Counted from the first letter of the stretch, positions 10,444-46,627 are shown. The stretch: DNA of 64,000 bases from Candidatus Poriferihabitaceae bacterium (GCA_965214205.1 OZ243941.1:1969419-2033418); one strand, 5' to 3'. The notes: generated by a model from the sequence alone, not told the origin. Translations and numbers: made by a program.

Positions 10444-10496
10444 CGCAACACGACAAGCGCCGGTCAATCAAACAGGCGCCGGGAACTCTGTAACCG

Positions 10497-11363: not shown

Positions 11364-11394
11364 CAGGGTCTCCGGGCGCGGGTCTGGGTCTGAC

Positions 11395-27872: not shown

Positions 27873-28013
27873 TCTTCGCTACTATTCGCCACTCATCAAT
27901 CGGCATTGCAATCTACCATAAAATGAAGCGGAACTAACGTTAACAGTGTGATAATGTCCGCAAGTATGTCACAATAATAAATGTCAAAATAATCATCCAA
28001 TAGAGGAAAATCA

Positions 28014-29009
28014 ATGTATTTGAAATTTACGCATAAAATTGCCACCGGATTCACGGGTATCGCAGCGGCTGCCATGCTGACCATGGCTGGGCCTTCTCAC
28101 GCTGCCGATTGCGGTGAAGTATCCATTACCGAGATGAACTGGGCTTCATCACAGATCATCACGGAAGTCTCCAAGTTTCTGATGGAGCAGGGATACGGCT
28201 GCACCATTGAGAAGGTGCCGTCGGCAACCACCACGTCGGTCGCATCCCTGGCCGAGAACGGAGAACCGGACATTGTTACCGAATTGTGGTTGAACTCGAC
28301 TGGCGATGTCTATGCGAAGCTGGAAGCGGATGGCAAGGTATCCCGTCTGGCTGATGTCATTGCGCCGGGTGGCCTGGAAGGCTGGTGGGTTCCTGAGTAT
28401 CTTGCGAAAGCCAATCCAGCCCTGGCTACCATCGAAGGAGTCATGGCGAACCCTGATCTGGTTGGCGGACGTTTCAATAACTGTCCCGACGGCTGGGGTT
28501 GTCGCATTGTCAACGACAACCTGATCAAGGCGCTCGATATAAAAGGCGCCGGAATCGAGGTTTTTGACCATGGTTCGGGCGAGACGCTGGCCACCTCAAT
28601 TGCCGCCGCCTATGAAAACGAAGAACCGTGGTTCGGTTATTACTGGGGACCGACCTCTGTGCTGGGTCAATACAAGATGACCAAGGTATCCCTCGGTGAT
28701 ATTGATACTGAAATTCATACAGGCAATCAGAACAAGGACAATCCGTCACCCGGAGTTTCCGACTTTCCGCCTGCTCCGGTATTGACTGTCGCCACGGCCG
28801 ACCTGGCCGCGCAGAAACCGGAGATCGCCGAACTCATGGGCAATGTGAGCTTTGATGTAGCCCTGATGAGTTCCCTGCTCGCCTGGCAGGAACAAAACGG
28901 AGCTTCAGCCGAAGAAACGGCGGTGTATTTCCTCTCTACACAGTCCGATGTTTGGGCGCAGTGGGTAAATGACGCGGCCCGTGAGAAACTGTCCGCCCTG
29001 ATCCAGTAA
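28014..29009 (+). CDS. Glycine betaine/proline betaine ABC transporter substrate-binding protein
   Basis: Signal peptide ending in AHA, ProX/OpuAC-like aromatic-rich sequence, and position upstream of the ProW/ProV homologues. Confidence 0.82.
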   Translation: MYLKFTHKIATGFTGIAAAAMLTMAGPSHAADCGEVSITEMNWASSQIITEVSKFLMEQGYGCTIEKVPSATTTSVASLAENGEPDIVTELWLNSTGDVYAKLEADGKVSRLADVIAPGGLEGWWVPEYLAKANPALATIEGVMANPDLVGGRFNNCPDGWGCRIVNDNLIKALDIKGAGIEVFDHGSGETLATSIAAAYENEEPWFGYYWGPTSVLGQYKMTKVSLGDIDTEIHTGNQNKDNPSPGVSDFPPAPVLTVATADLAAQKPEIAELMGNVSFDVALMSSLLAWQEQNGASAEETAVYFLSTQSDVWAQWVNDAAREKLSALIQ

Positions 29010-29122
29010 GCGAGCGGTTATCGTGGCGCGGCCTTTTTTACTGGTCGCGCCAACCGTTATCACGCAACAGGATGTCCGGGGGCTTCTGCTTGGCTCCCGG
29101 GTATTCGGCAAGGTGAACCAGA

Positions 29123-30157
29123 TTGGCAACGTATGAATTTGTTTTCGATGGTCTCGGACTGCGAGACTGGTGCGACTCCGGCGGCGCTGGAGACGCTCCG
29201 ATGTCGATGGCCGACCTGCTCGCACAAAGCGGAGGAGGCGCGAAAGACACCTCGCTATGGGAGCTCCCCTTCCCGTCTCTGGATGCGCTGAATGACTCCT
29301 GCGCGAGAATCATTCAGTCCAGAGATCTGACGAAGGGGGTCGAGCAGGGGTTTCTGGCGATCAAGGATGCCTTGCGCTTTGTGCTGGACCCGATGACTCA
29401 ACCGCTCAGCTGGATACTCGAATTCGCGCTTGCGACCTTCGAGTGGACACCCTGGTGGATCATGCTTCCGGTCCTCATCCTGATCGTCTATCTGGCGTCG
29501 AAATCTGTCCGTATTGCTGTCTTTGTAGCGGCTTGTCTGGCTTTTCTGGCCGGGATTGACCACTACGAATTCGCCATGCAGACGCTGGCGATTATCTTCG
29601 TCTGCGCTTTTTTATGCGTTCTTTTAGGCGTGCCGATCGGTATTGCCATGTCGCGCAGCAATACGCTGCAACGCATGACCATACCCATACTGGATATGTT
29701 GCAGACTCTGCCGCCATTCGTCTATCTGATTCCGCTTATCTTCCTGTTTTCGGTGACAGAGCCGAAACTCTACGGCATTGCCATTATCCTGTACGCCATT
29801 GTTCCGGTGATTCGTCTGACTGATCTCGGTATCCGGCTGGTTGACCAGGACGTGATTGAGGCGGCCAATGCCTTTGGCATGACAGATCGCCAAAAACTTT
29901 TTGGCGTGCAGATTCCGTTGGCGCTCCCGAACATTATGGCCGGAGTCAACCAGACCATTATGATGAGCCTTGCCATGGTCGTCATCGCCTCGCTGGTTTC
30001 AGCGCCGGGACTGGGTGTTCTGGTGCTTCGCGGCATCCGCAATCTCGAGTTGGGAGTCGGCCTGATATCCGGTCTTGGCATCGTTCTCCTGGCTATTATT
30101 CTTGACCGCGTCACAAAAGCCGCCCTTGACCGCGTCAACGAATCGCAAAAGCATTGA
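29123..30157 (+). CDS. Glycine betaine/proline ABC transporter permease (ProW-like)
   Basis: Long cytoplasmic N-terminus followed by a polytopic domain with an EAANAFGMTDRQKLFGVQIPLALP (EAA loop) motif. Confidence 0.88.
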   Translation: MATYEFVFDGLGLRDWCDSGGAGDAPMSMADLLAQSGGGAKDTSLWELPFPSLDALNDSCARIIQSRDLTKGVEQGFLAIKDALRFVLDPMTQPLSWILEFALATFEWTPWWIMLPVLILIVYLASKSVRIAVFVAACLAFLAGIDHYEFAMQTLAIIFVCAFLCVLLGVPIGIAMSRSNTLQRMTIPILDMLQTLPPFVYLIPLIFLFSVTEPKLYGIAIILYAIVPVIRLTDLGIRLVDQDVIEAANAFGMTDRQKLFGVQIPLALPNIMAGVNQTIMMSLAMVVIASLVSAPGLGVLVLRGIRNLELGVGLISGLGIVLLAIILDRVTKAALDRVNESQKH

Positions 30158-31233
30158 GCGCGGGAGACTGCATGGACGAACCTGTCAAAATATCAATCCG
30201 TAACCTGTACAAGGTATTCGGCCCCGAGCCACAAGCTGCTCTTGAGCGCGTCATGGCGGGAATGGACAAGACTGAACTGCTGGAAAAGCATCATCACGTA
30301 CTGGGGCTGCGAGACATCAATGTAGATATGCGTGATGGTGAGGTTACCGTCATCATGGGGCTTTCCGGCTCCGGCAAGTCAACACTGATTCGCCACTTTA
30401 ATCGCCTGATCGAACCTACGGCCGGACAGGTTGAGGTGGATGGTGAAAATGTGCTGGGTTATGGTGAAGAAGACCTGCGTAACCTTCGACGTTCCATGAT
30501 GTCGATGGTCTTTCAGCGATTTGCTCTGTTACCCCACCGCACGGTAATCGAGAACGCCGCTACCTCGCTAAAGGTGCGCGGTATTGGCAAGAGCGAGTAT
30601 CTGGCCGAAGCGCAAAAGTGGCTGGATCGCGTGGGTCTGGCCGGATACGACAATCGTTACCCGCACCAGCTTTCCGGCGGCATGCAGCAGCGCGTCGGTA
30701 TCGCCCGCGCGTTGACCTCCAATTCTCCCATCATGCTGATGGATGAAGCATTCTCGGCGCTGGATCCTCTGATTCGCACCGACATGCAGGACCTGCTGCT
30801 GGAGTTACAGACTGAGCTTCACAAGACCATCGTCTTCATCACCCATGATCTGGATGAAGCGCTCAAGATCGCTGATCACCTCGTGATTCTCAAGGATGGT
30901 TTCATCGTGCAGCAGGGCGAGCCGCAACACATCCTGCTAAATCCGAACGATCCTTACATTGAAGACTTCGTAAGCGACATCAACCGCGCTCGCGTACTGC
31001 GTGTCCGCTCAATCATGATTCCACTCGAAGGCGATGCTGTGCCACCCGACGCTCATGGCGAAGTGGGCTACAACGATACACTGGAAAGCGTCATCGCCCG
31101 CTCCGGTGGCGACACGTCACACGCATATATCGTGATGGGAGACGACGGCCCGGTCGGCACTCTGGACATGACCCGCCTGATCAAGGCGCTGGTGCCACGC
31201 GTAGCCTCCGAGGCCGGAGCCAGAAAATACTGA
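30154..31233 (+). CDS. Glycine betaine/proline ABC transporter ATPase (ProV-like)
   Basis: GLSGSGKST, LSGGMQQRVGIARAL, LMDEAFSALD, plus a C-terminal CBS-like regulatory region. Confidence 0.92.
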   Translation: MSAGDCMDEPVKISIRNLYKVFGPEPQAALERVMAGMDKTELLEKHHHVLGLRDINVDMRDGEVTVIMGLSGSGKSTLIRHFNRLIEPTAGQVEVDGENVLGYGEEDLRNLRRSMMSMVFQRFALLPHRTVIENAATSLKVRGIGKSEYLAEAQKWLDRVGLAGYDNRYPHQLSGGMQQRVGIARALTSNSPIMLMDEAFSALDPLIRTDMQDLLLELQTELHKTIVFITHDLDEALKIADHLVILKDGFIVQQGEPQHILLNPNDPYIEDFVSDINRARVLRVRSIMIPLEGDAVPPDAHGEVGYNDTLESVIARSGGDTSHAYIVMGDDGPVGTLDMTRLIKALVPRVASEAGARKY

Positions 31234-31290
31234 ACCCCCGGCCAGGATTTAGCCACTGCATTCCCGTTCTCCGGAACGATTACCAACCCG

Positions 31291-31415
31291 TGATCGTAGG
31301 GGCGGGTCTTGTGCCCGCCCGCGAATGGTGGATACCTGTTCCGACATTGTGGGACGGCACAATCATTCCCCCCTTGAGGGGGAATCACATCGCGCGAAGC
31401 GGGTGTGATGGGGGG
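31291..31415. repeat. REP-like hairpin cluster, left island border
   Basis: GGGCGGG-TCTTGTG-CCCGCCC hairpin. ATTCCCCC-CTTGA-GGGGGAAT hairpin (31365-31385). ATCACA..TGTGAT hairpin (31384-31409). Confidence 0.7.
31300..31332 (+). repeat. 33-bp direct repeat, left copy
   Basis: GGGCGGGTCTTGTGCCCGCCCGCGAATGGTGGA is identical to 42423-42455. No other copy was seen in the window. Confidence 0.9.
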
Positions 31416-31496
31416 AACAACCGTCATCGCTGTACCTGTCCACAAATGTCGAAACGCGCTGGCTCAAGAGTGCGACACCCTCAAACCAAACAGTAC

Positions 31497-31988
31497 TCAG
31501 AATGGATCGTTATCACCCGCGCCAGATAACTCAGTGAAATAGGAAAGCTCCATTCGCTCCTCGAAGAATTGCTTTGCCGTCTGGTTTTCATACTCAATCC
31601 GCTCGGCTGGAATGTTTAAGAGCGAAGCTATTCGGTCTTTTTTCTGAGAAATACGATCAGAAACCAAGTCTGCTTTGTCCTCGAAAACAGGCGCGACAAC
31701 TAATACCTTTAGGTATTCGCTCCGCGTTACGGCTTGTCCAATAAGGCCATTTACATAGTCGTCGCTAAAACTGTATCCAATTACCACAATAAATCTCAGT
31801 GCTTCGTTCAACGAATATTTCCGAAGCTCATGAACATAGAACAGGTACGGATCAATTGAACTCAATTTTTCTGCTGTACCAAAAATCAACTCTGGGTTCG
31901 GTTGGGGATTATCGCAGAGCTTCAAGATATTGCCGTTCGCTTCCTCTCGTTCCCAGTCGATTGATCCGTGGAGTTTATAGAGATACAT
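31497..31988 (-). CDS. SIR2_2-like protein, C-terminal half of the domain only (possible truncated NADase effector)
   Basis: YKLHGSIDW and VVIGYSFSDDYVNGLI motifs characterise SIR2_2-type defence sirtuins. No Gly-rich NAD loop is present. The ATG lies 2 nt after the stop of the upstream ORF, in another frame. Confidence 0.65.
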   Translation of the reverse strand: MYLYKLHGSIDWEREEANGNILKLCDNPQPNPELIFGTAEKLSSIDPYLFYVHELRKYSLNEALRFIVVIGYSFSDDYVNGLIGQAVTRSEYLKVLVVAPVFEDKADLVSDRISQKKDRIASLLNIPAERIEYENQTAKQFFEERMELSYFTELSGAGDNDPF

Positions 31989-31990
31989 AC

Positions 31991-33088
31991 CTACATCAGT
32001 GTTCTCGTTAGCATCGAACTTGGTTGCCTCCCATTCACGACCACTATTAAATCCAAGCTCAATACCAAAAGAAGAACCGCTACGAGCATTATCTTGTCGT
32101 TTGTATACGACGCTTTCAACTCTTGAATCTTCGATTCAACAGCCTCTATTGCGTTCGCGTCGAAGGCTTCTACAAGGTGATGATCAATTATGTCCTTGTG
32201 AATCGGCACTGAAAACATATTCTGAAGACCCGAGAACTGTCCGGGAAAAAGTTTACCCAGCACTCCAAGATATACATCTCTCGCCAATGATCTCGTTCTT
32301 TCTGTGAAAAGGAATAGATATCTAACGTCATCTTCCATCGGGCGATACGGGCCATTCGCCTTGATACCCATGAACTGAGATTTGGCTTTACTTCCCTTGC
32401 CAACCAGATAGGTTTTTACATCGAGATGTTTCGCAGGAAGGCTTTCGAATTCTGTTTCAATCTCAAGAGGTGAAGAGGACATCAACGGTGCAAGTACATC
32501 ACATGAGAATGATTCGATTACTGATTTCTTGTCTTTGTAGAAATAAATATTCGGCTTGCCTGAATTGTCCAACGACAAGCTGCGAATTTGCGTTTGTCTA
32601 TTGAACGGCTCTCCTTCGTTGAGAGAGTACTTGTGCTCCAAAAGGAATCCGAACAGCTCTTTCTCTTTCAAGTAATAGGGCTTGACGACGATCTCCGTTG
32701 CGCCATCTTCGTACCTTTCTGTGACGAACCGAACTTCTTTCAGGGGTATCGCTTTTTTTGGTGTGTAATATTCTATCTCCGCTTCAGTCGACCCCACAAT
32801 ATGGTCAAGCAAATCCGAGTAAATCAGATGGACGGTTAAAACAGAATTCTTGCTGAACCGATAGCTGTACGACTCATAGTTTTCTTTCTCGGATTTTGAA
32901 ACATCAAATAGTCGCCACTCGTCACCGCCCTCATGCGCAGGAAGATTTACACGAAAATCGCCGTCCGCTTTGGGTAGGGAACTATCTTCAACAAGCTTCC
33001 GGTAGATCGTCACACTGCGATCTTGCCTTTTAAGCGGAACGAAATTGAGATTGATATCAGACATGCTCATTTCCTCTGCCAGCCGCAA
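31991..33088 (-). CDS. Uncharacterised 365-aa protein; the C-terminal third resembles the start of a prokaryotic Argonaute MID domain
   Basis: It overlaps the hsdS stop, suggesting translational coupling. NGPYRP..RYLFLFTE..FSGLQNMF..AVESKIQELKASYTNDKIMLVAV parallels, from memory only, the GPF..ILVV..SGF..GIVVL layout at the start of pAgo MID domains. It ends in a hydrophobic tail instead of the rest of MID/PIWI. Confidence 0.45.
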   Translation of the reverse strand: MRLAEEMSMSDINLNFVPLKRQDRSVTIYRKLVEDSSLPKADGDFRVNLPAHEGGDEWRLFDVSKSEKENYESYSYRFSKNSVLTVHLIYSDLLDHIVGSTEAEIEYYTPKKAIPLKEVRFVTERYEDGATEIVVKPYYLKEKELFGFLLEHKYSLNEGEPFNRQTQIRSLSLDNSGKPNIYFYKDKKSVIESFSCDVLAPLMSSSPLEIETEFESLPAKHLDVKTYLVGKGSKAKSQFMGIKANGPYRPMEDDVRYLFLFTERTRSLARDVYLGVLGKLFPGQFSGLQNMFSVPIHKDIIDHHLVEAFDANAIEAVESKIQELKASYTNDKIMLVAVLLLVLSLDLIVVVNGRQPSSMLTRTLM

Positions 33089-34403
33089 TTGGTATGGAAT
33101 TACTAAAAGTCTCCCAAGATAAAGTTCCTATTAGTGTTGATGTCCTGCGACTATTCTCAACAATTTCCGTTGAAAGTGCTTTACAAATATCCAACTGGCT
33201 CTCTAGCTTGCTTACAATCTCATCTTGGTCAATTCGTGGAGGCAAAGGAATCAGTGCGTTTGCCACAATCCCTTGATTGATTTTTGGCATGCTCTTCTGC
33301 GCTCCGGTTGCATTAGAGCGGAAGTACTTACGAGAGAATGGGCTTGTAAGAACGTAATGCAGGTACTTGAGAGACAGTTGCTTTGCAAATCTCAACTTCA
33401 TCATTAGATCGGGGTAAATAAATTCGTAATCTTCACCCGTGTATATGGCGGACACCCCCACGTGCTCTAACGAGTTACTTCTTTGTATAAGGATGTCACC
33501 CCTTTCCAACCACAAGTGAGAGTCTTCAGGAATATCCTCATCTATATACTTGATCTGAGAACAATCAAAACTTCCACTCGTAGTCGCTCCTAACTTCAGT
33601 GTTTTCGTTTGCGTTTCAAAGTCTACTGTCTTCGGCGAGTATCCGTTTCTAGGATTTTCATACAGTAACTCACCTAATCGGCACCATTTCCAACTCTTCG
33701 GCAATTCAAACGGTTTTTCTTCATCACTGATAGCTAGTAGAGGCTTTTGCTTTTTCATTTTCTTAACTTTTATCAAGTCGGCTTTTTCAGCAGCGATGTC
33801 TTCCAGCAGTTTGCTGACAGGCTCTACTTTTTGGCTGGTAGCGCGCCAGTCTGTTGTGAGTTTGCCTTCGATGGCCTCCTGCAATATTTGTTGGCGAAGT
33901 TCTTTTAGCAATCCCCGCTGATGAACTAGCTCGCAGTCAAGTAAATCCTTAATTCTTAGAGTGCTCTTGAGCTTTCCAATCCAGAATTCTTGTTGATCGA
34001 TATCGAGATATGGAATTTTATACTTCTTGAAATTCTTCTGATTTATAGACTCTTTCGAAGTACCTGACTTCGTTGCTGAAACCAAGACTGGCCTCAGGGA
34101 GTTGAATACAAAGTGATAGAAACTAAGATTCAGGGGGTACTTGTTGTCGTCCTTTGGCGTAAGGATAAAACACAGATCACTACTCGTGAATTTTCCATCC
34201 ACATAATGCGTGCGCCCGAGTGATCCCGAAGCGGATCCGGCAAAAACAAGCGCTTCACATTCATGGGAATACTCAGTATGAGTCTTCCATTCTTCTGCCG
34301 CTGTAATGAAATCGAACTCACCAGCCAAGCACTTAGTACTTTGCAGGCTTCCTTTTTCAAGATCAAAAAGCGTACCGATGGGCAACATCATGTTTGACAT
34401 CAA
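33057..34403 (-). CDS. hsdS: Type I restriction-modification specificity subunit HsdS
   Basis: 448 aa with two target-recognition halves separated by a coiled-coil spacer (LLKELRQQILQEAIEGKLT). ATGA overlap with hsdM. Confidence 0.9.
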   Translation of the reverse strand: MMSNMMLPIGTLFDLEKGSLQSTKCLAGEFDFITAAEEWKTHTEYSHECEALVFAGSASGSLGRTHYVDGKFTSSDLCFILTPKDDNKYPLNLSFYHFVFNSLRPVLVSATKSGTSKESINQKNFKKYKIPYLDIDQQEFWIGKLKSTLRIKDLLDCELVHQRGLLKELRQQILQEAIEGKLTTDWRATSQKVEPVSKLLEDIAAEKADLIKVKKMKKQKPLLAISDEEKPFELPKSWKWCRLGELLYENPRNGYSPKTVDFETQTKTLKLGATTSGSFDCSQIKYIDEDIPEDSHLWLERGDILIQRSNSLEHVGVSAIYTGEDYEFIYPDLMMKLRFAKQLSLKYLHYVLTSPFSRKYFRSNATGAQKSMPKINQGIVANALIPLPPRIDQDEIVSKLESQLDICKALSTEIVENSRRTSTLIGTLSWETFSNSIPIAAGRGNEHV

Positions 34404-35822
34404 CCCAACTCCTTTCGCAATTTCCCAAGCAATTCATCGCCTTTCAAAAATGACTGGTGCAGCATATCGAGCAATTCTGCGCTGCTGTGCTGTTGCTCTT
34501 CTTCAGGCTGGTGAGGATTCTTAAGATCGAGGTTGTAACCACTGGCTTTGATCGTTTCAAAGTCTACCTGCCATGCTGCTTCGCTCTCTTCTCTGTTAAC
34601 CCACCAATGTTTCAATCCATCGAACTCTACACCCTGAATAGGTTTTGTCTTTGAGTATGCCTTGTATCCTTCAGGCAGCTTGTGCTGGTAATACCAAATC
34701 GTCTTTGTCTGCTCACCCTTGCTGAAAAAAAGCAAGTTAGTCGCTACCGCCGCATAGGGCTGAAATACCGAGTTGGGTAAGCGCACAATCGTGTGTAAGT
34801 TGCAATCTTCAAGTAGTTTTTCGAATACATTGTTTTACACCATCACCCGTAAGCGACCCATCCGGCAAAACAATGGCTGCACGAGCACCCTTTTTGAGTA
34901 GATGAATCATCAAGATCAGAAATAGGTCTGCCGATTCCTTCGTCCGATAAGTCAGCGGGAAGTTATTTTCGTTGTTGTTGGAAACAACTCCGCCGAACGG
35001 TGGGTTTGCCAAAATAACATCTACACGATCTTTCCGTGTGTATTCGGTTAAGGGTCGCTCCAGTGAATCACCATAGCGGATCGAGGGAGTGGTTATGTCA
35101 TGTAATATGAGGTTGGTATTTGCGAGCAAGTATGGAAGTGGTTTGTATTCCCAGCCTCTAACATTCTTGCCGATAGCCTTACGCTCGGCGACGTTCTTTG
35201 CCGTCTGCTTAAGGTGCTCGATAGTTGCGGTCAAAAAACCGCCCGTACCACACGATGGATCAAGTATTGTTTCCCCATGTTGCGGATCGACTAATTCAGT
35301 CATCAACTCTGTCAAAGCACGCGGCGTATAAAATTCCCCTAACGTCCCCGCGCTTTGCAGTTCACTCAGGAATGTTTCATATATCTGCCCAAAAACGTGC
35401 TTGTCTTTACTATTATTGAAGTCGACCTCATTGAGCTTGTTGATAACCTGCCGAAGATGGATGCCAGACTTCATGTAGTTATAGTTATTGTCGAAGACTT
35501 CATGCACCAAGAAAGCGCGTTTATTTCCGGTTGAGAGGTCGATATTCGATAGGGTTGGGAATAGCTTACGATCTACAAAATGCAGCAGTTCGTCCCCTGT
35601 CATTCCCTCATCATCACCTGCCCACTCATCCCAATGAAGCCCCTGAGGTATTGGCGAGGTGTAATCGTCATCCAGCAATTCCAGCTCTTTGTCCTTATCA
35701 CTGAAAATCTTGAGGAATAGCATCCAGCCCAACTGGAGAATGCGCAGCTCGTCACTTCCAGTCCCCGTATCCTGCCACATGATTTTTCGCACTGATTTGA
35801 CTATTCCTGGAATATTGCTCAT
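34400..35822 (-). pseudogene. hsdM: Type I R-M N6-adenine DNA methyltransferase HsdM, interrupted by a +1 frameshift
   Basis: Motif I DPSCGTGGF and motif IV NPPFG lie in the 337-aa ORF. The conserved continuation ..KLLEDCNLHTIVRLPNSVF.. is in the adjacent 128-aa ORF. The frames meet at an A5 run (T5 at 34817-34821 on the + strand). Confidence 0.85.
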
Positions 35823-35825
35823 GCG

Positions 35826-37949
35826 TCAGGCTCCCCAATGCTCTTTTTCGTAGGCGCTTTGATCTTCACGGCTCAATGGCTGCGATGAACAGCCTGTTCG
35901 GACGAAGAAGCCTTCTTCGCCTTCGAAGGTTACGAATACCGGCTTACCGCTCTTGGCAACACGAATGCGGCATATTTGAACATCGTCATAAACAGGAAAA
36001 GTCACCTTTATGTGTGTGCTGTAGCCTCCGCCGATGTATTTCTTGATGATTTCAACAAGATGCAGCTCAAACCCATCAATGTTCTTCTTGCTAAGCGTCT
36101 CAATGTCATCCGTGAGACCGAGAGCATTCTGTTCATCGTCAATACCGATAAACAAATCTCCGCCTTCACTGTTAAGGAATGCAGCAATCGTTTTTGCTAT
36201 AACGTATTCGAGCTTTTTGTTTACGGATTCCGTCCGCAAGTCATAACGAAGCGTGGATTTGAATTCGACCCTGTCACTTTCACCAGCCGTTACTAATTCC
36301 TGAACCTCTTCGTTGGCAGGCTCCTTGTGGCTGAGCTCGATACGCACTTTCAATTCGTCGAAGATAAGCTTAGCGCGCGCCTTCAGGAACGTGTCGTAGT
36401 CATCACTCTCAATACCAAAGCCATTGATATCAATGAAATGAGAATTTAACGCCTTATTGATAGCGGAGTTTTCATCACTGAAATCACCGATATAGCTGGA
36501 AGGTGGTCTCGCCCGAATAGCGCGTTTGTTCAGGCGGTCACCGACAAAAGTGATGTTGACGAGGCTATTGCTGTTTGCAACTTCTTTGTTTTCAAGATAC
36601 TTCTTTGGAAAGAAGTGGTGGTAGTTTTTGCTGCTGGCGATTTTTAACCACGAATTGTCAAGAATGACCCTCCCGTTATCCTGGAAATCCTTTGGCTCCT
36701 GATATGCCAAAAGGCAAAGAACTGCTTTGCAGTAGCTGTTTCCCGCACTGAAATTGGTCTCAATGAGCGCTTTAGGTGAATCAAGGTCAACCTTAATGTC
36801 ACTATAGTCGGGACGCTGGTTCTTTAATATCAGGTCAATTCGTTTGATATCCTGCGCTAACCGAGACTCCGTTGAGCTTGAATAGCGATACGATAGCGAC
36901 ATCCTCCAGAAATATTCTTCCAAATACTTCCGTTGGTCGGACTCCGGCTTTTCCTTGTTCAGGAAAAAGAAGTAAGCAAAAGGCACCAAAAGCGAGTCAT
37001 ACGGAAGAAGCTGCGAGACGGGAATTCGATATGTCGTGCGAAAATAGTCAATACTGTCTTTGAGGGCGGAGATAGCATCTTCCCATTTGTCAATAATCGC
37101 CTGCTTGTCGAGTGCCAAAATTGTCTTGCGCTTACATTCTTTGGTTCGACTCAGCACCAGAGAAAGCAAACTCAGAATTACCGTGCTGTATACGCCCTCA
37201 TACTTAATCGCCTCCAGCTCCTTTATGAAGGCTTCCCATTTTGCCTGCATGTCGAACTTCTGCTCTTCGTCATAAGTCTTCGCAGACATAATCTCAAAGA
37301 GCGTTAGCGTCTGGCCGCCCGTATTGATGCGCGTAAATACTTCAATTGCAGAATCAATGTCCTCTTTAAGTAGGACAACAGTCGAAAACGTATAGGTCTT
37401 AAAAGCGGTGGAATATGCGTCTATCAACTCCAATTCGTCTCCACTGAATTCTTCGGAAAGTTCTCTTGCCTTGCTGTAACTGAAGTTCAAGACATCAGAC
37501 AAAGAGATATACTTCTCTCCGCTCGGTTTGGCTGTAATGACTTGATCGTCATTTTCACCAAGGTTCTTGTCGAGGTTCACGACAATACCGCTATAGTCCG
37601 TTATTTTCTTTTCGCCTGTCTTTTGAATCTGTGCACCGCGGTAAGCGGCAAATAGTGACGTTATTCGCTGCTGGCCATCGAGGACATATTGAACCTTTGT
37701 TCCTTCCGGCGTTTCCGGTATCTCAAGATTTCCAACATTCTTGATATCATTAATACGCTCATCGGTCTGCCAAAGAATGAATGTGCCAATCGGATAGCCC
37801 TTCAAAATACTATCTAACAGCTTGGCCGTCTTATCGATACTCCAAACGAACTCGCGCTGAAACTTCGGAATTTTGATTATTCCTTTCTGTATCTCATTAA
37901 TGAGATCAGAGTATTTCTTCGAGTCCGGCTTGGGCTGTTCAAAATTCAT
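35826..37949 (-). CDS. GmrSD-like DUF262 / His-Me-finger (DUF1524-like) protein fused to a C-terminal AlbA_2 (Schlafen-like) domain
   Basis: N-terminus: IPKFQREFVW ... DGQQRITS. Middle: NYHHFFPKKYL..NSLVNITFVGDRLNKR. C-terminus: ESDRVEFKSTL...AAFLNSEGGDLFIGIDD...FFVRTG. It is nested between hsdR and hsdM with 14-nt and 3-nt gaps. Confidence 0.82.
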   Translation of the reverse strand: MNFEQPKPDSKKYSDLINEIQKGIIKIPKFQREFVWSIDKTAKLLDSILKGYPIGTFILWQTDERINDIKNVGNLEIPETPEGTKVQYVLDGQQRITSLFAAYRGAQIQKTGEKKITDYSGIVVNLDKNLGENDDQVITAKPSGEKYISLSDVLNFSYSKARELSEEFSGDELELIDAYSTAFKTYTFSTVVLLKEDIDSAIEVFTRINTGGQTLTLFEIMSAKTYDEEQKFDMQAKWEAFIKELEAIKYEGVYSTVILSLLSLVLSRTKECKRKTILALDKQAIIDKWEDAISALKDSIDYFRTTYRIPVSQLLPYDSLLVPFAYFFFLNKEKPESDQRKYLEEYFWRMSLSYRYSSSTESRLAQDIKRIDLILKNQRPDYSDIKVDLDSPKALIETNFSAGNSYCKAVLCLLAYQEPKDFQDNGRVILDNSWLKIASSKNYHHFFPKKYLENKEVANSNSLVNITFVGDRLNKRAIRARPPSSYIGDFSDENSAINKALNSHFIDINGFGIESDDYDTFLKARAKLIFDELKVRIELSHKEPANEEVQELVTAGESDRVEFKSTLRYDLRTESVNKKLEYVIAKTIAAFLNSEGGDLFIGIDDEQNALGLTDDIETLSKKNIDGFELHLVEIIKKYIGGGYSTHIKVTFPVYDDVQICRIRVAKSGKPVFVTFEGEEGFFVRTGCSSQPLSREDQSAYEKEHWGA

Positions 37950-37963
37950 TCAATGTTTCCTGT

Positions 37964-40351
37964 TCATGCAGCGTTGTAGATTGCCTGCTCAAGATTGGTT
38001 ACGGCCATCCTGTATTGATTCTTGCCGCCGAATAAACTGACAATTTCTATCGGGGTGCCAATTTCATCAAATGGATTCACCGTCAGTATCTTGATGTCTT
38101 CGATATTCTCGATACCTTCATCAGCGTACTTATCCAATAACGCTTCAAGCACTTGTCTGGCCTGCTCACCGTACTTTGTGAAATAGTCACGCTTCTTCAC
38201 GTTGTTCGCTCTCTCGGCTCTCGTGAGCGGTGGCTGGTCAAAAGCAGTATGACAGATCAAATCAAAGATATCCATTTCCTTACTGATTGTCTCTTTTAGA
38301 TTTTCAAAGACGAGCCCCTGCTCGGTTAGCTCGTCGATGATGGCTTGCTTTCTCTCTGCTGAATGCCACTTATTCAGGAAGTCGTCCAAAGACGCAAAAT
38401 GTTCTCTGACTTTTTGTCTGGTGTAATCTCTCAGGCTTCCAGTGATTAGTTTGCCATTACCATTCAGGTACTGAACGCGCTCGTTGAGAATGGCGACATT
38501 GATGCCATTTACGTAGTATTTAGGTCTCGGCTCGCCGATGCTCTCTCCGCCCGCGGTTATCTCCGGCTCCTGTGGTATTGGATCGAAAATTACGGCATCA
38601 CCATCTTCATCAACCACGTCTTCAGCTTCTTCGATCTCTTCTTCGTATGTGTCGAACTCATCAGATTCTTCGAGTTCTTTGATCCGTACGGGATCACCAT
38701 CAAAATCAGTATCAGCGAATAGATCGGTAACATTGCGGAAGTCCATAATCGTGAAAAATTTCTTGCCATATTCTTCATTTATGCGGGTTCCACGACCGAT
38801 AATTTGTTTGAATTCGGTCATTGAACCGATGTTGCTATCCAGGACGATCAACTTGCAAGTCTGTGCATCGACTCCGGTGGTCATCAGCTTGGAGGTCGTT
38901 GCGATAACAGGATAGTCTTCTTCCGGGTTGATGAAGTTATCCAACTCACGCTTGCCTTCTTGATTATCCCCAGTAATCTGCATGACATACTTGCTATTGC
39001 TAGCCATGAGGTCGCTGTTTGCATTCGCGATTGCGGAGCGCATTCTTTGTGCATGGTCAATATCAGCACAGAAAATAATCGTTTTGTCGGAGCGGTTGGT
39101 CTTCTTCAAGAACTCCGTCACCTTGTCAGCGACCGTTTGTGTACGCTCATCTATGACGAGATTTTTGTCGAAGTCTTTTCGGTTGTAGATACGATCCTCG
39201 ACCACAAGCCCCTGCTTGTCTGTCTTCCCTAACTCTGGCCTCCAGCCCTCCAGATCAACATTCAATCCGACCCGAAGCACTTTGTAGGGAGCAAGGAAAC
39301 CGTCTTGTATTCCCTGCTTGAGGGAGTACGTATATAGCGGCTCGCCAAAATACCCGGTACTGGAAACCGTTTCTGTTTCTCTGGGTGTGGCAGTAAGGCC
39401 AATATGCGTCGCACTATTGAAGTAGTTCAAGATTTCGCGCCAAGCGCTGTCTTCCACCGCGCTGCCCCGGTGGCACTCGTCAATAATAATCATGTCAAAA
39501 AATTCTGGACTGAATTCCCGATAGGCATCTTTGTCTTCGTTGTAGTCCGTGAGACCTTGATAAAGCGCCAGATAAATCTCGTAGGACTTGTCTATTTGTT
39601 TATGCTTTACGACCGTCATTTTGTTCTTGAAATGACGGAAGTCACCGCGCCTGGTTTGGTCAATGAGAGCATTTCTATCAGCAAGGAACAGAATTCGCTT
39701 TTTTGTTCCGCTCTTCCACAGACGATGGATAACCTGGAATGCCGTGTAGGTCTTTCCAGTACCCGTCGCCATGGTCAGTAAAATTCGAGACTGACCTTTG
39801 GCAATTGCTTCAACGGTTCTGTTGACAGCAATTTGCTGGTAGTAACGCGGGGTTCTCCCCGAACCATCGAAAAAGTAGTCTTGGGCACTAATTCTTTCTT
39901 GTTCTTCTGTTTGAATGCCTTTGTATTTTTTATAGCGTTGCCAGAGTTCCTGTGGTGATGGGAAGTTGTCGAGCGCTAACTCCCTTTCGATGTTTCCGTC
40001 ACTACATGTTCGGTCATGCTCGTAGAAAGCATCGCCATTGCTGCTGTAAACAGTTGGGATGTCAAGAATTCTAGCGTAATTCAGCCCTTGTTGAATTCCA
40101 GCATTGATGGAGTGTTTGTTGTCTTTGGCTTCAATGATTGCAATAGGAATATTGGGCTTATAATAGAGAATGTAGTCCGCTCGTTTCCTCTTGCCTCTGG
40201 TAGTCAAATTGCCCTTTACGTAGATTCTTCCATCCGTAAATGACACTTCTTCGCGGATTTGCGTCTGCATATCCCAGCCCGCTTTCTCCAGAGCCGGACT
40301 AATGAATTTCGAGCAAATATCGCGTTCTGATAAGCTTTTCTTTGAGGTCAT
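37964..40351 (-). CDS. hsdR: Type I restriction endonuclease subunit HsdR
   Basis: N-terminal PD-(D/E)xK-like region (IIEAKD), helicase motif I MATGTGKT and motif II DECHRG, 795 aa. Confidence 0.93.
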   Translation of the reverse strand: MTSKKSLSERDICSKFISPALEKAGWDMQTQIREEVSFTDGRIYVKGNLTTRGKRKRADYILYYKPNIPIAIIEAKDNKHSINAGIQQGLNYARILDIPTVYSSNGDAFYEHDRTCSDGNIERELALDNFPSPQELWQRYKKYKGIQTEEQERISAQDYFFDGSGRTPRYYQQIAVNRTVEAIAKGQSRILLTMATGTGKTYTAFQVIHRLWKSGTKKRILFLADRNALIDQTRRGDFRHFKNKMTVVKHKQIDKSYEIYLALYQGLTDYNEDKDAYREFSPEFFDMIIIDECHRGSAVEDSAWREILNYFNSATHIGLTATPRETETVSSTGYFGEPLYTYSLKQGIQDGFLAPYKVLRVGLNVDLEGWRPELGKTDKQGLVVEDRIYNRKDFDKNLVIDERTQTVADKVTEFLKKTNRSDKTIIFCADIDHAQRMRSAIANANSDLMASNSKYVMQITGDNQEGKRELDNFINPEEDYPVIATTSKLMTTGVDAQTCKLIVLDSNIGSMTEFKQIIGRGTRINEEYGKKFFTIMDFRNVTDLFADTDFDGDPVRIKELEESDEFDTYEEEIEEAEDVVDEDGDAVIFDPIPQEPEITAGGESIGEPRPKYYVNGINVAILNERVQYLNGNGKLITGSLRDYTRQKVREHFASLDDFLNKWHSAERKQAIIDELTEQGLVFENLKETISKEMDIFDLICHTAFDQPPLTRAERANNVKKRDYFTKYGEQARQVLEALLDKYADEGIENIEDIKILTVNPFDEIGTPIEIVSLFGGKNQYRMAVTNLEQAIYNAA

Positions 40352-40406
40352 CCGCTAGCTCGCTTTATTTCTGTTTACGCAACACATCCCGTCACTTTAC
40401 TATCAT

Positions 40407-40432
40407 TCGTTTAAGGAATCGTTTAAGGAATC
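40407..40432. repeat. Tandem 12-bp repeat (2 perfect units plus 2 nt)
   Basis: TCGTTTAAGGAA TCGTTTAAGGAA TC, in the AT-rich divergent region between hsdR and the AbiEi gene. Confidence 0.9.
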
Positions 40433-40494
40433 TCTGATTAATTTACTCTCTATTGTATAATGATTTTTAATTCTTTAATGGCGGGAGATTTCTT

Positions 40495-40599
40495 ATGATT
40501 CGCCGGAGTACATTTTCCGCGATTAGGTTTGGTAAATACAGTAAGAAAACGCGCAAGGGCAACCCACGGCACTTTGGCATGAAGGTCCTATTGGCGTAG
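40495..40599 (+). CDS. Candidate 34-aa basic small ORF (below the ORF-track cutoff)
   Basis: ATG at 40495 preceded by GGGAGA with a 6-nt spacer. TGTATAAT at 40454-40461 lies ~35 nt upstream. Translation: MIRRSTFSAIRFGKYSKKTRKGNPRHFGMKVLLA. Confidence 0.22.
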   Translation: MIRRSTFSAIRFGKYSKKTRKGNPRHFGMKVLLA

Positions 40600-40655
40600 A
40601 CAAACCTGTAATATTCAGATTTTCCTTAAATTTATTTTGATTTTGTGTTAGTTTC

Positions 40656-41501
40656 ATGGTTATGAACCAACCAAGAACACCAAGATTAAAACCACTGCTT
40701 GAGGCGTTCCCCCCAGGATTAATCGTAGATACGACATGGCTGAAGGCTCGGGGTATCGACTCAAAATCCATCCATGATTACGTCGCGCGCGGATGGATCA
40801 AGCGTGTGACCCGAGGCGTATACCGCCGTCCACCACCAAACGGTGCACGGGCTGACGACTTGTCCTGGCAGGTGGTCCTTATCTCACTGCAACAACTCAT
40901 GGGCCACGATGTGCATCTGGGAGGGGAAAGTGCGCTGGAATTCGAGGGCCATGTTCACTATTTGGAACTGGGAGTGATGGGACCTGTTCATCTTTACGGA
41001 AACACACCTTCGTGGATTAAGCGCCTGCCAACTACGAGACGGATAGCGCTGCACCGCCCCGTTCTTTTCAGTGGGGATCTGACAGGGATTGAAGAGACCG
41101 ATGGTCGGGATGGGGAGGACGAGTGGGTCGCGCATGTCTGGCGCTGGCCCATGAGGCTATCGTGCCCCGAACGTGCTATCCTGGAAGCGATTGGTGAACT
41201 GCCGAACAAAGCAAGTTTTGAGCACGTTGACCGGATATTTGAGGGCCTGACAGGTTTGCGTCCCAGACTACTCATGGAGCTCTTGGCGGCCTGTCGCAGC
41301 ATCAAGGTTCGGCGGCTGTTTTTCGTATTCGCGGAAAGACACGGACACGGCTGGCTAAAACACGTGGAACCCAGACGGGTTGACCTCGGAAACGGACCGC
41401 GGTCTCTGGTTCGGGACGGCAGGTTCCACCCAACCTACCGTATCTCCGTTCCCGAATTCCTCATCCCCGTGAGACAGATGGACGCGACTGGCGGTGCTTG
41501 A
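40656..41501 (+). CDS. AbiEi-like type IV toxin-antitoxin antitoxin / transcriptional regulator
   Basis: N-terminal wHTH-like segment (TTWLKARGIDSKSIHDYVARGWIKRVTRGVYR). 8-nt overlap with the downstream nucleotidyltransferase gene. Confidence 0.72.
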   Translation: MVMNQPRTPRLKPLLEAFPPGLIVDTTWLKARGIDSKSIHDYVARGWIKRVTRGVYRRPPPNGARADDLSWQVVLISLQQLMGHDVHLGGESALEFEGHVHYLELGVMGPVHLYGNTPSWIKRLPTTRRIALHRPVLFSGDLTGIEETDGRDGEDEWVAHVWRWPMRLSCPERAILEAIGELPNKASFEHVDRIFEGLTGLRPRLLMELLAACRSIKVRRLFFVFAERHGHGWLKHVEPRRVDLGNGPRSLVRDGRFHPTYRISVPEFLIPVRQMDATGGA

Positions 41502-42405
41502 TCGATACGTCGCGCAGGTACGTCTGTTGGTGGACATGCTACCCGAGGTTGCAGCGGAATCCGATTTCGCGCTCAAGGGCGGCACTGCCATCAATCTGTT
41601 CTACCGTAACCTGCCAAGACTATCGGTCGACATTGACCTGACCTGGCTCCCGGTCGCCGATCGCACAGCTTCACTCAGGGAGATTGATAGCGCTCTTAAC
41701 CGCATCGTTACCTCAACCAACCGGAACAAACCTCGGATTACGGTAATTCGCCCGATGGGTGGTGGAAATAATGACACTAAAATATTGGTGAGGCGCGACC
41801 GCGTGCAAATTAAGATCGAGACTTCACCAGTGGCAAGGGGCACCGTGTTCCCGCCAAAGCAGATGGAGGCATCCGAGTCTGTCATGGAGCAGTTTGGATT
41901 CGTGGAATCACACGTGCTCGCTTTCGAGGATCTGTATGCCGGTAAACTCGTTGCCGCTCTTGACCGCCAGCATCCGCGCGACCTGTTTGATGTCAAGCTA
42001 CTTTATGAAAATGAGGGGCTTACCGATAAACTTTTCCGCACATTCCTGGTATATGTTTCTGGTTCTCGAAGACCAATGCACGAGCTACTAGCGCCTGTTT
42101 TGCCATGCTGGGGCGACCGGTATGAAACCGAGTTTACAGGCATGACCCGGAATCCGGTTTCATCAGAAGCGCTCCTTGAGACGGGACGGTATCTGCATAG
42201 TGACATCCGAGCACGGTTGGCAGGCAGGGTTGCAGACTTTTTGCTCTCACTCCACGACGCCCAGCCAGACTTCGGATTAATTGGGTTGCCTGAGGCCGTG
42301 GAATTACCATCGGTACGCTGGAAGCTACTAAACCTTGAGAACCTGAAGACAACCAACCCTGTCAAACATGCAATGCAGCGCAACGCTCTCGAGCAACTGC
42401 TGTGA
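41494..42405 (+). CDS. AbiEii/AbiGii family nucleotidyltransferase toxin (DUF1814)
   Basis: LKGGTAINLFYRNLPRLSVDIDLTW nucleotidyltransferase motif, 303 aa. Confidence 0.85.
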   Translation: MLDRYVAQVRLLVDMLPEVAAESDFALKGGTAINLFYRNLPRLSVDIDLTWLPVADRTASLREIDSALNRIVTSTNRNKPRITVIRPMGGGNNDTKILVRRDRVQIKIETSPVARGTVFPPKQMEASESVMEQFGFVESHVLAFEDLYAGKLVAALDRQHPRDLFDVKLLYENEGLTDKLFRTFLVYVSGSRRPMHELLAPVLPCWGDRYETEFTGMTRNPVSSEALLETGRYLHSDIRARLAGRVADFLLSLHDAQPDFGLIGLPEAVELPSVRWKLLNLENLKTTNPVKHAMQRNALEQLL

Positions 42406-42422
42406 TAAATAATCTAAATTGC

Positions 42423-42455
42423 GGGCGGGTCTTGTGCCCGCCCGCGAATGGTGGA
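42423..42455 (+). repeat. 33-bp direct repeat, right copy
   Basis: Identical to 31300-31332. Confidence 0.9.
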
Positions 42456-42497
42456 ATGATTTCCGGCCGTTATCGTTGGAGACGGGTATCAACGGTA

Positions 42498-42578
42498 GCG
42501 GGCACCCACAGAGGAGCGCCCCTACGATGCCTCCAGGCGCGGCATCCATATTGTTGTGGGTTCCCGCAAATGCGGGAA
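42498..42578. repeat. REP-like elements, right island border
   Basis: Degenerate inverted copy of the left REP (GCGGGCACCCACAGAGGAGCGCCCCTACGAT, 42498-42528), plus a TTCCCGC-AAAT-GCGGGAA hairpin (42561-42578). Confidence 0.6.
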
Positions 42579-42600
42579 TGACGGATGGTTGGGACGAGAA

Positions 42601-42630
42601 AATCACTCCCCCCGCAAGGGGGGAGTGATT
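42601..42630 (-). terminator. Hairpin terminator downstream of metY
   Basis: 13-bp perfect stem AATCACTCCCCCC / GGGGGGAGTGATT with a GCAA loop. On the minus strand it is followed by TTCTCG, ~30 nt after the metY stop. Confidence 0.55.
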
Positions 42631-42661
42631 GGAAGGAGAGTGATTGGTGGGAGGGTTGCCC

Positions 42662-43936
42662 CTACCCTGCGGATGCGGCTAATGCCTGATCAATGTCTTC
42701 GATTATATCCGCCACATTTTCGATGCCGATAGACAATCGGACCAGGTCCGGGGTAACTCCCGATGAAGCCAGTTCCTCGTCTGAAAGTTGACGGTGGGTG
42801 GTTGACGCCGGATGACAGGCGAGGGATTTGGCATCGCCGATGTTAACCAGCCGCAGCACCATCTGAAGCGCGTCGATAAACCGAGCGCCGGCCTCAACAC
42901 CGCCCTTGATGCCGAAACTCATTACGCCGGAACCTTTTCCGCCCATGTATTTATCCAGCAGGGATTTGTGTGGACTGTCATCCAGGCCGCAGTAACGAAC
43001 CCACTCAACACGTTCATGGCCTTTCAGATGTTTGGCTACAGTGAGCGTGTTGTCACAGATTCTGTCCATTCTCAAGGTCAGGGTTTCGAGGCCCTGCATG
43101 GCCAGGAATGAATTGAGCGGAGCCAGGGCAGCCCCGATGTTTCTCAACGGAACCACTCTGGCCCGCAGGATATAGGGCGGCAACCCGGTTTCCGTGTATA
43201 CCACGCCATGATAGGAAACATCCGGCTCGTTCAAGCGTCTGAAGCGTTCCTTGTTCGCGACCCAATCGAATTGGTTGGAATCGACAATCATACCGGCGAC
43301 AATGGTGCCATGTCCGCCGATATATTTGGTCAGGGAATGGACAACGATGTCACAACCCCACTCGAATGGCCGACACAGGTAAGGCGTTGCTACGGTATTG
43401 TCGACGATGACTGGAATACCATGTGCATGGGCAATGTCCGAGACCTTTTGCAGATCAATTACATTGCCTGCCGGGTTTCCGATTGATTCGCAGAACACCG
43501 CCTTGGTTTTGTCGTCAAACAGACTGGCGAGCGAGTCGAGATTTTCCGGGTCTGCAAAGCGGGGTTCGATGCCCAGCTGCGGGAAAGTATGCGCGAACAG
43601 ATTGTAGGTGCCGCCATACAGGGTGGACATACTGACAAAATTGTCTCCGGCCTCGGCAATGGTCAGCAGCGAATAGGTCGTCGCCGCCTGTCCTGAGGCG
43701 AGCGCCAATCCGGCAACGCCTCCTTCCATATCGGCCACTCTCTGTTCCAGTACATCGTTGGTCGGATTCATGATCCGGGTGTAAATATTGCCCAGTTCCG
43801 CGAGGTTGAATAAATTCGCCCCGTGCTGGGTACTGTCGAATGCATAAGCCGTGGTTTGATAAATGGGCACTGCAACAGAGTGAGTGGTCGGGTCATGTTT
43901 AAAGCCCGTATGCAAGGCCTTCGTTTCTATTCTCAT
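42662..43936 (-). CDS. metY: O-acetylhomoserine sulfhydrylase (PLP-dependent)
   Basis: MRIETKALHTGF start; HSLTKYIGGHG PLP-lysine motif. The ORF is open to 44113, but the conserved N-terminus begins at the ATG at 43936. Confidence 0.92.
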   Translation of the reverse strand: MRIETKALHTGFKHDPTTHSVAVPIYQTTAYAFDSTQHGANLFNLAELGNIYTRIMNPTNDVLEQRVADMEGGVAGLALASGQAATTYSLLTIAEAGDNFVSMSTLYGGTYNLFAHTFPQLGIEPRFADPENLDSLASLFDDKTKAVFCESIGNPAGNVIDLQKVSDIAHAHGIPVIVDNTVATPYLCRPFEWGCDIVVHSLTKYIGGHGTIVAGMIVDSNQFDWVANKERFRRLNEPDVSYHGVVYTETGLPPYILRARVVPLRNIGAALAPLNSFLAMQGLETLTLRMDRICDNTLTVAKHLKGHERVEWVRYCGLDDSPHKSLLDKYMGGKGSGVMSFGIKGGVEAGARFIDALQMVLRLVNIGDAKSLACHPASTTHRQLSDEELASSGVTPDLVRLSIGIENVADIIEDIDQALAASAG

Positions 43937-46459: not shown

Positions 46460-46504
46460 AATGCGGAGCCGGCGAGAGCGGCGATTCGACACAACCAACC
46501 GTCT

Positions 46505-46627
46505 TTCCCGTGAAAACGGGAATCCACAACCATTCGGAATCTGCAATTACCGATGCGTAGAGCTTGCCCTTGATCCCCGATCAAGCCGGGGGCAAGCTTT
46601 GCGGAGTGTGTCTCTCCTTGAGGGGGA
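46505..46627. repeat. REP-like hairpin cluster between rph and rdgB
   Basis: TTCCCG-TGAAAA-CGGGAA (46505-46522). A nested hairpin AGCTTGCCC[CTTGATC-CCC-GATCAAG]..GGGCAAGCT (46561-46598). CCTTGAGGGGGAATGA (46616-46627) shares its core with 31372-31386. Confidence 0.6.

Follow-up and report, generated by a model that had tools for sequence, protein, structure and literature searches.

Some chromosomal hotspots of horizontal transfer carry no mobile elements, and it has been proposed that double homologous recombination between the core genes on either side diversifies them (Oliveira et al. 2017, PMC5635113). Among the repeats found between bacterial genes, repetitive extragenic palindromes (REPs) of the GTAG type have been described together with their dimers and clusters (PMC3733652). 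Their units carry a 5' GTAG beside a GC-rich palindrome of ~21 nt with a covarying stem, occur extragenically in many copies across genomes as a mixture of whole and partial units, and join into head-to-head inverted dimers with short spacers, termed REPINs (PMC3733652, PMC3337134, PMC3479197), which are presumably mobilised by the transposase RAYT, also named TnpA_REP (PMC3733652, PMC3337134, PMC3479197). Among defence systems, BPAS consists of a long-B prokaryotic Argonaute (pAgo) and a Sir2_2 effector, and answers invaders with NAD+ depletion (Song et al. 2023, PMC10620215). Here, we analyse a 64,000-nt stretch of a Candidatus Poriferihabitaceae genome (GCA_965214205.1 OZ243941.1:1969419-2033418; henceforth the window, with positions counted from its first nucleotide), in which a defence island of 11.4 kb lies between the core genes proV and metY, bracketed by REP arrays that share a perfect 33-bp direct repeat (the 33-mer).

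Our account, which we consider probable, is that this is a composite, partly dead and horizontally acquired island, exchanged by recombination in flanking genes, and that the 33-mer is a pair of REP units rather than a pair of attachment (att) sites. A first module, which would be left-over cargo of a mobile element, joins a Type I restriction-modification operon, in which a DUF262 gene is embedded, to a long-B-like Argonaute/Sir2 pair; the second is an intact AbiEi/AbiEii toxin-antitoxin pair. The island would have needed no mobility gene of its own, since double homologous recombination in the flanking core genes could have exchanged it between two related lineages, each of which has presumably eroded it independently since. 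GTAG-tagged REP units, normally inverted dimers, would have colonised, or stayed in, two 3'-3' gaps made by the island, and the two copies of the 33-mer would be identical because REP copies stay similar within a genome. The locus is a new example in which known kinds are combined: a composite decaying island from mobile-element cargo, flank-gene exchange and bracketing by REPs.

The proV-metY locus in related genomes

Eighteen related proV-metY loci were compared, 14 from a sister clade (L004-L007 and, from one population, L014-L023) and the remainder occupied, including L011, L144 and L145. The closest MetY homologues, 90-93% identical, lie on the sister-clade contigs L004-L007, and shared genes of the clade are ~78-82% identical to the window at the nucleotide level. 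Gene order is kept on both sides in all 14 loci and the site is empty: in the 13 that are readable (the gap of L015 is masked by Ns), 96-139 nt separate proV from metY and hold one terminator hairpin, no REP and a conserved spacer built on a common ~96-nt sequence. Homology to the window ends at the proV stop codon and resumes ~6 nt inside the metY 3' end. More distant MetY relatives (L009, L010) have lost synteny with proV and are thus uninformative.

The occupied sites carry less than the window. L011, a 2.70-Mb circular contig, holds hsdS', hsdM', the gene of the DUF262 fusion protein, hsdR and a truncated AbiEi gene, without pAgo/SIR2 and without AbiEii; L144 and L145, ~97% identical to L011, keep AbiEi alone between REP arrays. 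The AbiEii deletion junction is common to all three, and the cassette remnant of L011 is gone from L144 and L145 at an ATACAG microhomology. The simplest order would run from a window-like through an L011-like to an L144-like state by progressive loss, the toxin gene disappearing before the antitoxin gene.

Compared with L011 and L144, the window is 94-100% identical from ~27.0 kb, in the opuAC operon, through proV and the island to ~43.7 kb, in the 3' half of metY, a tract that takes in ~4 kb and ~1 kb of neighbouring genes beyond the island. Outside it, identity falls to 72-88% over 21.6-26.9 kb and 43.8-45.8 kb, short conserved patches excepted. Since the sister clade is only ~81% identical to the window over proV-opuAC, the tract is not merely a slowly evolving operon. 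We infer that it was imported or exported by homologous recombination with crossovers in the flanking core genes. The REP arrays are its most rearranged parts and differ strongly between the lineages inside otherwise 97-99% identical sequence, so breakpoints at REP edges are common. The initial annotation had suggested a REP-flanked recombination hotspot; the REPs as crossover points are not supported, the detectable exchange ending inside the flanking genes, near 27.0 and 43.7 kb.

The locus resembles mobile-element-free hotspots (PMC5635113) and core defence hotspots (PMC10250203) as a defence island between core genes with no integrase or transposase in the open reading frames (ORFs) scanned, as a site of variable occupancy among relatives and in the reach of the high-identity tract into both flanking genes. 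This pairing of raised flank identity with four occupancy states is what flank-gene recombination would be expected to leave. It differs from such hotspots in holding one island lineage in four states of completeness and no unrelated alternative cargo. All 18 related loci are empty or eroded versions of the window island, every occupied site carrying a derivative of it, and a hotspot with alternative cargo is not supported.

It is extremely improbable that the island is a foreign fragment mis-joined at repeats of a metagenome-assembled contig. The source does appear to be a metagenome assembly, and two short-read contigs from close relatives, L008 (2470 nt) and L146 (2583 nt), extend beyond the metY stop by just 8 nt and 78 nt and thus break off within the REP array, where assemblies fail either at the repeat or at strain variation. 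However, independent assemblies from other samples (L011, L144, L145) contain the same proV-island and island-metY joins, and a protein 100% identical to the fusion protein is encoded on a 2.32-Mb contig.

Origin and decay of the cassette

G+C content is 55.2% and 54.2% in the flanks and 58-59% in the junctions, falls to 44.9% over 31497-40410 and 35.5% over 40411-40655, and returns to 54.8% in AbiEi/AbiEii. The cassette lies at a tetranucleotide distance of 0.416 from the flanks, compared with 0.092 +/- 0.012 for control chunks of equal size. A sharp composition change had been proposed earlier from hand counts, which agree with this profile, but the low-G+C block ends near 40.4-40.6 kb and AbiE is not foreign by composition. 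As low G+C is limited to ~31.5-40.4 kb, the compositional island is narrower than the interval originally drawn.

This block, and nothing else in the window, is homologous by blastn (31495-40410, 85-92% identity) to L012, an unrelated 4.3-Mb genome in which the cassette is intact, in the order hsdR, fusion gene, hsdM (474 aa), hsdS (643 aa), pAgo (635 aa, Piwi domain at residues 342-613) and SIR2_2 (362 aa). Around the L012 cassette lie genes for HTH_17, ArdA, relaxase and MobC proteins and for a DUF6538/Phage_int_SAM_5 protein, in which the integrase SAM-like domain is weak. Beyond hsdR, homology between the window and L012 gives out near 40404-40411, in the last ~25 nt of the HTH_17 gene of L012. 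A 12-nt tandem duplication (TCGTTTAAGGAA x2, 40407-40430), also present in L011, marks the point where it ends; this could be a scar left at the junction, or else an operator repeat. The cassette circulates widely, its intact copy residing within an integrative mobilisable element with a relaxase and a likely integrase, and module 1 (31.5-40.4 kb) would be the cargo of such an element, its backbone lost. A plasmid collection gave no nucleotide match to the cassette and fusion protein matches of at most 55% identity.

Apart from the identical copy on the 2.32-Mb contig, the fusion protein has many homologues at 78-97% identity; the best 120 matches span 78-100% amino acid identity and come from distantly related phyla, the named sources being Gammaproteobacteria, Leptolyngbya, Anaerolineaceae, Nitrosomonas, Halomonas and Limnobacter. 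In L013, the fusion gene (10001-12124) stands beside MT-A70, BglII-like, IS1595 and N6_N4_Mtase genes without a Type I operon, and it therefore also moves independently of the cassette.

These data bear on the alternative that the region is ancestral, vertically inherited and deleted in relatives that lack it. Two lineages do carry the island at the same site, and all differences among occupied sites are losses. Nevertheless, we regard this history as very unlikely: the cassette is 10 points lower in G+C and a strong tetranucleotide outlier, its 85-92% identical counterpart sits in a mobile-element context in an unrelated genome, and homologues of the fusion protein at 78% identity or more come from Leptolyngbya, Anaerolineaceae, Nitrosomonas and Halomonas. 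Moreover, similarity between the two lineages is far higher in the island and close to it than in the genes further out, and the sister-clade site is empty in 14 of 14 loci, with the same conserved spacer in every readable gap. Horizontal acquisition, proposed in the initial annotation, is borne out by the empty relatives, the foreign composition of the cassette and its occurrence in an unrelated mobilisable element.

Two lesions are directly visible in the window. Relative to L012, 1,447 nt are gone, with 2 nt in their place at 32071-32072, a deletion that cost pAgo its PIWI half and SIR2 its NAD-binding half and joined what was left. The pAgo fragment accordingly matches positions 1-318 of a 617-position pAgo model and lacks PIWI, and the SIR2_2 fragment, its N-terminal 199 residues gone, matches positions 163-313 of the 313-position model of pAgo-associated SIR2. 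As one deletion truncated both genes, neither product would be expected to function. In BPAS, Sir2 is toxic on its own and is restrained by its partner pAgo (PMC10620215), so a single deletion that hits both genes is, by analogy, of a kind likely to be tolerated. The second lesion is a 2-nt loss in an A-run of hsdM (on the gene strand; plus strand 34817-34821), the run being A5 in the window and A7 in L011, with L012 in frame. Inside hsdM of L011 (13060-13074), a run of ~15 G stands at a point that is unremarkable in the window and in L012; it is either an artefact of the assembly or the lesion that splits the gene there.

The border repeat and its REP family

Both copies of the 33-mer, GGGCGGGTCTTGTGCCCGCCCGCGAATGGTGGA, are exact and lie on the plus strand (Table 1). 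As first reported, they are the only ones in the window, which holds no further match with up to three mismatches (shuffles with any match, 0/100). When the two junctions are aligned with each other, identity is confined to these 33 nt and stops abruptly, with unrelated sequence on either side. At both junctions, the neighbouring genes converge 3'-3' (proV and the SIR2 remnant on the left, AbiEii and metY on the right), and in gaps of this kind REPs can sit without harming promoters. Five of the 11 perfect GC-rich hairpins of the window are in the two junctions. The left REP-A copy reads ccgtgatcGTAG-GGGCGGG-TCTTGTG-CCCGCCC-GCGAATGGTGGA, i.e., a 7-bp GC stem with GTAG directly 5' of the palindrome (atcGTAG-GGGCGGG-tcttgtg-CCCGCCC); the right copy has the palindrome but TTGC where GTAG is expected, and is a truncated unit.

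A relaxed REP core pattern, CGTAGGGGNGGGTCTTGTNCCCNCCCGC, was run against metagenome stretches of the Joint Genome Institute (JGI), and the counts that follow are among the matches listed. The core occurs in at least 120 stretches (L024-L143), on contigs of 34-72% G+C, which is unusually broad for a single REP sequence type. At the two central positions of the stem, bases are paired in 123 of 126 cases (CG 69, AT 54, non-pairs 3), and CCCCTACG lies within 150 nt in 20 of 129. The near-invariant core of the family makes up the first 23 nt of the 33-mer, and these have 41 exact matches, followed by unrelated tails; the exact 33-mer has no match in the JGI metagenomes. A 28-nt core, CGTAGGGG[C/A]GGGTCTTGT[G/A]CCC[G/T]CCCGC, recurs near base-for-base in many unrelated samples, usually once per contig. 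The remaining 10 nt of the 33-mer form a tail typical of this lineage, GCGAATGNT(C)GGA, after which come ACGGGTATCAAC and an inverted partner, and family copies with this type of tail occur at unrelated loci in L011, L144 and L013.

Inverted dimers accompany this stem covariation. In the window, the right 33-mer pairs with the inverted REP-A', and further REPINs are found in L011 (2303/2387), in L013 (1295/1375) and at the left junction of L011/L144. The cluster at the unrelated L013 locus combines two REP-A units identical over ~40 nt with an inverted partner, two hairpin C units and a REP-B double hairpin. With covariation and inverted dimers both as expected of GTAG-type REPs and REPINs, the 33-mer would most likely be the body and tail of one such unit. 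The family departs from the described ones in that the right-hand window copy has no GTAG and that no numbered GTAG family or RAYT was matched; no RAYT (Y1 HUH transposase) was seen among the ORFs scanned (~27.0-47.2 kb), although no search was aimed at it.

The behaviour of the left-site unit offers a possible reason for the identity of the pair. Its orthologue in L011/L144 departs from the window copy in the stem, through a compensatory change (C:G to A:T), as well as by an indel in the loop and an altered tail, and is closer to a copy elsewhere in its own genome (L144 7318) than to the window orthologue. This points to homogenisation of REP copies within a genome, which would also make the two copies of the 33-mer in the window identical.

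The placement of the repeats within REP clusters, noted at the outset, agrees with the GTAG tag, the GC palindrome and the dispersed, covarying family. A role as att-like site or recombination scar, also suggested then, is not supported, in that 23 of the 33 nt are family core and the 10-nt tail is typical of the lineage. A strict pattern, GGGCGGGN7CCCGCCCGCGAATGG, had given three unrelated matches in 185,579 species-representative genomes, a search that fixed one stem variant and the tail in a set lacking the source genome; the reading drawn from it, that the 33-mer is not a dispersed REP, was overturned by the relaxed-core matches. The initial annotation held that a scattered high-copy REP, together with the same gene content in all relatives, would indicate an ancient, non-variable region. 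Dispersal is essentially what we find, at the level of the family, whereas gene content differs among relatives.

Several observations nevertheless weigh against our account. The count of the exact 33-mer covers the 64-kb window, and the 53 kb of non-island window contain no further REP-A, all three copies being at the island borders. REP-A copies at different loci of the related species differ by 2-5 nt over this span, whereas the window pair is identical at 33/33 across 11 kb, closer than two family members taken at random. The left copy has the family 5' context ccgtNatcGTAG without an inverted partner, and the right copy, without GTAG, is followed by spacer and REP-A'; together they look like a single REPIN split into complementary halves, an arrangement that one duplicative insertion would produce as well. 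The background outside the identity tract comes from an alignment of ~8-10 kb only, and the hsdM frameshift, lying in a homopolymer, could be a real inactivation, phase variation or a long-read homopolymer or sequencing error.

Part of this would follow if the island, or a larger ancestor, had entered as a circle by a single crossover in a chromosomal REPIN, either site-specific, through a lost or trans-acting recombinase, or RecA-mediated and Campbell-type, with the duplicated 33 bp as attL/attR-like scars. The circle would carry the junction AbiEii-33mer-TACCTGTTCC, and precise excision would leave ATCGTAG-33mer-ATGATTTCC. In favour of such an entry, identity of the 33-mers ends abruptly on both sides and is complete where the related species shows differences between loci, the two copies joined at one 33-mer rebuild a normal REPIN, the inverted REP-A' contains, at 42517-42528, a perfect 12-nt inverse of ATCGTAGGGGCG (31293-31304), and the element around the intact L012 cassette encodes a relaxase and an integrase-like protein. 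However, most of the repeat is invariant family core with a family-typical tail, and the left border of the island in L011/L144 is a complete REPIN rather than the expected arm of an element. Breakpoints in the REP arrays are frequent inside the 97-99% identical tract, so arguments from parsimony are weak. No integrase, transposase or excisionase was found among the island ORFs, each of which belongs to a defence family, or the scanned flanking ORFs (~27.0-47.2 kb), and no tRNA or tmRNA in the 64-kb window; in agreement with the initial annotation, neither end has a recombinase gene, tRNA or tmRNA, and insertion at such a conserved target is not supported. No locus shows an empty site with a single copy, although the empty sites found belong to a ~80% identical clade without any REP there, which leaves this comparison without power, and the only traceable transfer went through the flanking genes. 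We consider entry as a circle unlikely.

One feature is not fully explained by our account. The 3' edge of REP-A (immediately after ...GAATGGTGGA) lies within 1 nt of at least three independent breakpoints, namely the end of left-copy identity in the window, the loss of spacer in the left REPIN of L011/L144 and the endpoint of the AbiEii deletion in L011/L144. REP units, far from being bystanders, may take an active part in remodelling the island, and the 33-bp duplication may be the footprint of an insertion or deletion at a REP boundary; RAYT-type cleavage, or template switching primed by the REP hairpin, could insert or delete DNA there. We hold this reading to be quite unlikely. If it were true, REPINs could serve as points of entry and exit for chromosomal defence cargo that lacks mobility genes.

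Other identities for the hairpins were considered and dropped. The hairpin of the 33-mer is no terminator, a T-run being absent on either strand, and the 33-mer is unlike dif, which speaks against a Xer-type site as used by integrative mobile elements exploiting Xer (IMEX). An Rfam scan of the 64-kb window gave no family at threshold; its one sub-threshold match, of CRISPR-DR53 to the REP-B hairpin, is taken as chance.

Gene content, neighbourhood and implications

Gene calls rest on Pfam and PADLOC profile matches to the window ORFs (Table 1) and agree with the initial annotation that every gene between proV and metY is of a defence type and that the flanks are housekeeping genes (FdhD, OpuAC, permease and ProV on the left; MetY, arginase, GNAT, RNase PH and Ham1 on the right). 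The families named there stand as well, except that hsdM is split by a frameshift and that the gene called GmrSD has the DUF262 N-domain but no DUF1524 nuclease domain detected at E<=0.01.

Table 1. Features of the proV-metY interval and its surroundings (window coordinates, nt)
Feature	Position	Strand	Remarks
High-identity tract to second lineage (L011, L144, L145)	27000..43700		binned blastn identity
proV, ABC ATPase	30154..31233	+	last gene of opuAC-permease-proV operon; left core flank; Pfam, synteny in 18 related loci
Left junction, REP array	31234..31496		REP-A with GTAG tag 31291-31332, includes 33-mer 31300-31332
REP-B double hairpin	31360-31415		left junction
Cassette 3' tail and hairpin, weakly conserved	~31440-31496		left junction, after SIR2 stop
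SIR2_2 fragment	31497..31988	-	residues 200-362 of 362-aa pAgo-associated SIR2; 93% identity to L012
pAgo fragment	31991..33088	-	residues 1-330 of 635-aa pAgo, 89% identity to L012; likely start 33064
hsdS	33057..34403	-	448 aa, two target-recognition domains; looks intact
hsdM, frameshifted	34400..35822	-	two ORFs: 337 aa (34809-35822) and 128 aa (34400-34786)
DUF262 (GmrSD_N) + AlbA_2 fusion	35826..37949	-	707 aa, intact, between hsdR and hsdM; PADLOC candidate PDC-M55C
hsdR	37964..40351	-	795 aa, intact
AT-rich divergent spacer	40352..40655		35.5% G+C over 40411-40655
AbiEi antitoxin/regulator	40656..41501	+	281 aa
AbiEii nucleotidyltransferase toxin	41494..42405	+	303 aa; deleted in L011, L144, L145
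Right junction, REP array	42406..42661		33-mer 42423-42455, a 5'-truncated REP-A without GTAG
Degenerate REP prefix CCGTTATCGT	42467-42476		right junction
Inverted REP-A'	42489-42530		right junction; diverged copy, ends CGCCCCTACGAT
Hairpin C	42559-42584		right junction
REP-B variant	42601-42630		right junction
metY, O-acetylhomoserine sulfhydrylase	42662..43936	-	right core flank; no exact database match to MetY as called here, the record having a 471-aa call from another start codon
Third REP array, hairpin C type, same families	46486..46600		outside island

The order hsdR, DUF262 fusion, hsdM, hsdS is that of Type I operons with an embedded DUF262/GmrSD-type gene (PADLOC PDC-M55C and HEC-05) and is also seen in L011 and L012. 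In the window, hsdR and hsdS are full length and hsdM is split by the 2-nt frameshift, possibly a sequencing error, so the set as read appears not to be intact. The fusion protein carries GmrSD_N (E=6.5e-33), with the PDC-M55C and HEC-05 matches spanning residues 5-538, and ends in AlbA_2 (Schlafen-like). GmrSD type IV enzymes combine DUF262 with a DUF1524 His-Me nuclease domain, for which the fusion protein gave no match at E<=0.01.

The other two systems contrast in preservation. The intact relative L012 has pAgo followed by a separate Sir2_2-domain gene, as in BPAS, with PADLOC matches to pAgo_II and Aga_SIR2, the 635-aa pAgo being long-B by resemblance only; in the window, both genes survive as the fragments listed in Table 1, which would not make up a BPAS. 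AbiEi (AbiEi_3_N and AbiEi_3, i.e., a winged helix-turn-helix and a C-terminal domain) and AbiEii, a nucleotidyltransferase, are adjacent with an 8-nt ORF overlap and strong profile matches (Pfam and PADLOC E-values 1e-21 to 1e-113), and the predicted pair conforms to an AbiE type IV toxin-antitoxin system with no notable difference; the relatives lost the toxin gene and kept the antitoxin gene.

The neighbourhood of the site varies in other ways as well. The third REP array sits between the RNase PH and Ham1 genes, is also present in L011 (2381-2470) and resembles the L013 cluster. In the sister clade, L005 and L006 carry a ~42-nt tandem duplication that spans the very end of proV and the beginning of the spacer (11369-11411; 139 versus 96 nt), so that the site is unstable on a small scale where REPs are absent, too. 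In one sister population, L014, L018 and L019 have gained an MFS transporter gene between opuAC and fdhD (e.g., L014 14600-15808), and opuAC and the permease gene are missing from L019. One sister-clade genome alone, L004, has two tandem copies of a DDE_Tnp_1_4 transposase gene (195-3029), ~7 kb from metY.

Overall, the locus is ordinary biology and leaves current understanding unchanged. It provides a worked example, from uncultured bacteria, of how a defence island without mobility genes persists, spreads and then erodes gene by gene, along a path in which a mobilisable element would have lost all but its cargo, which recombination in neighbouring core genes then carried from one lineage to another before it eroded. 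For genome scans it carries a caution: a perfect direct repeat around an island may be two members of a REP family in convergent gaps that the island itself made.

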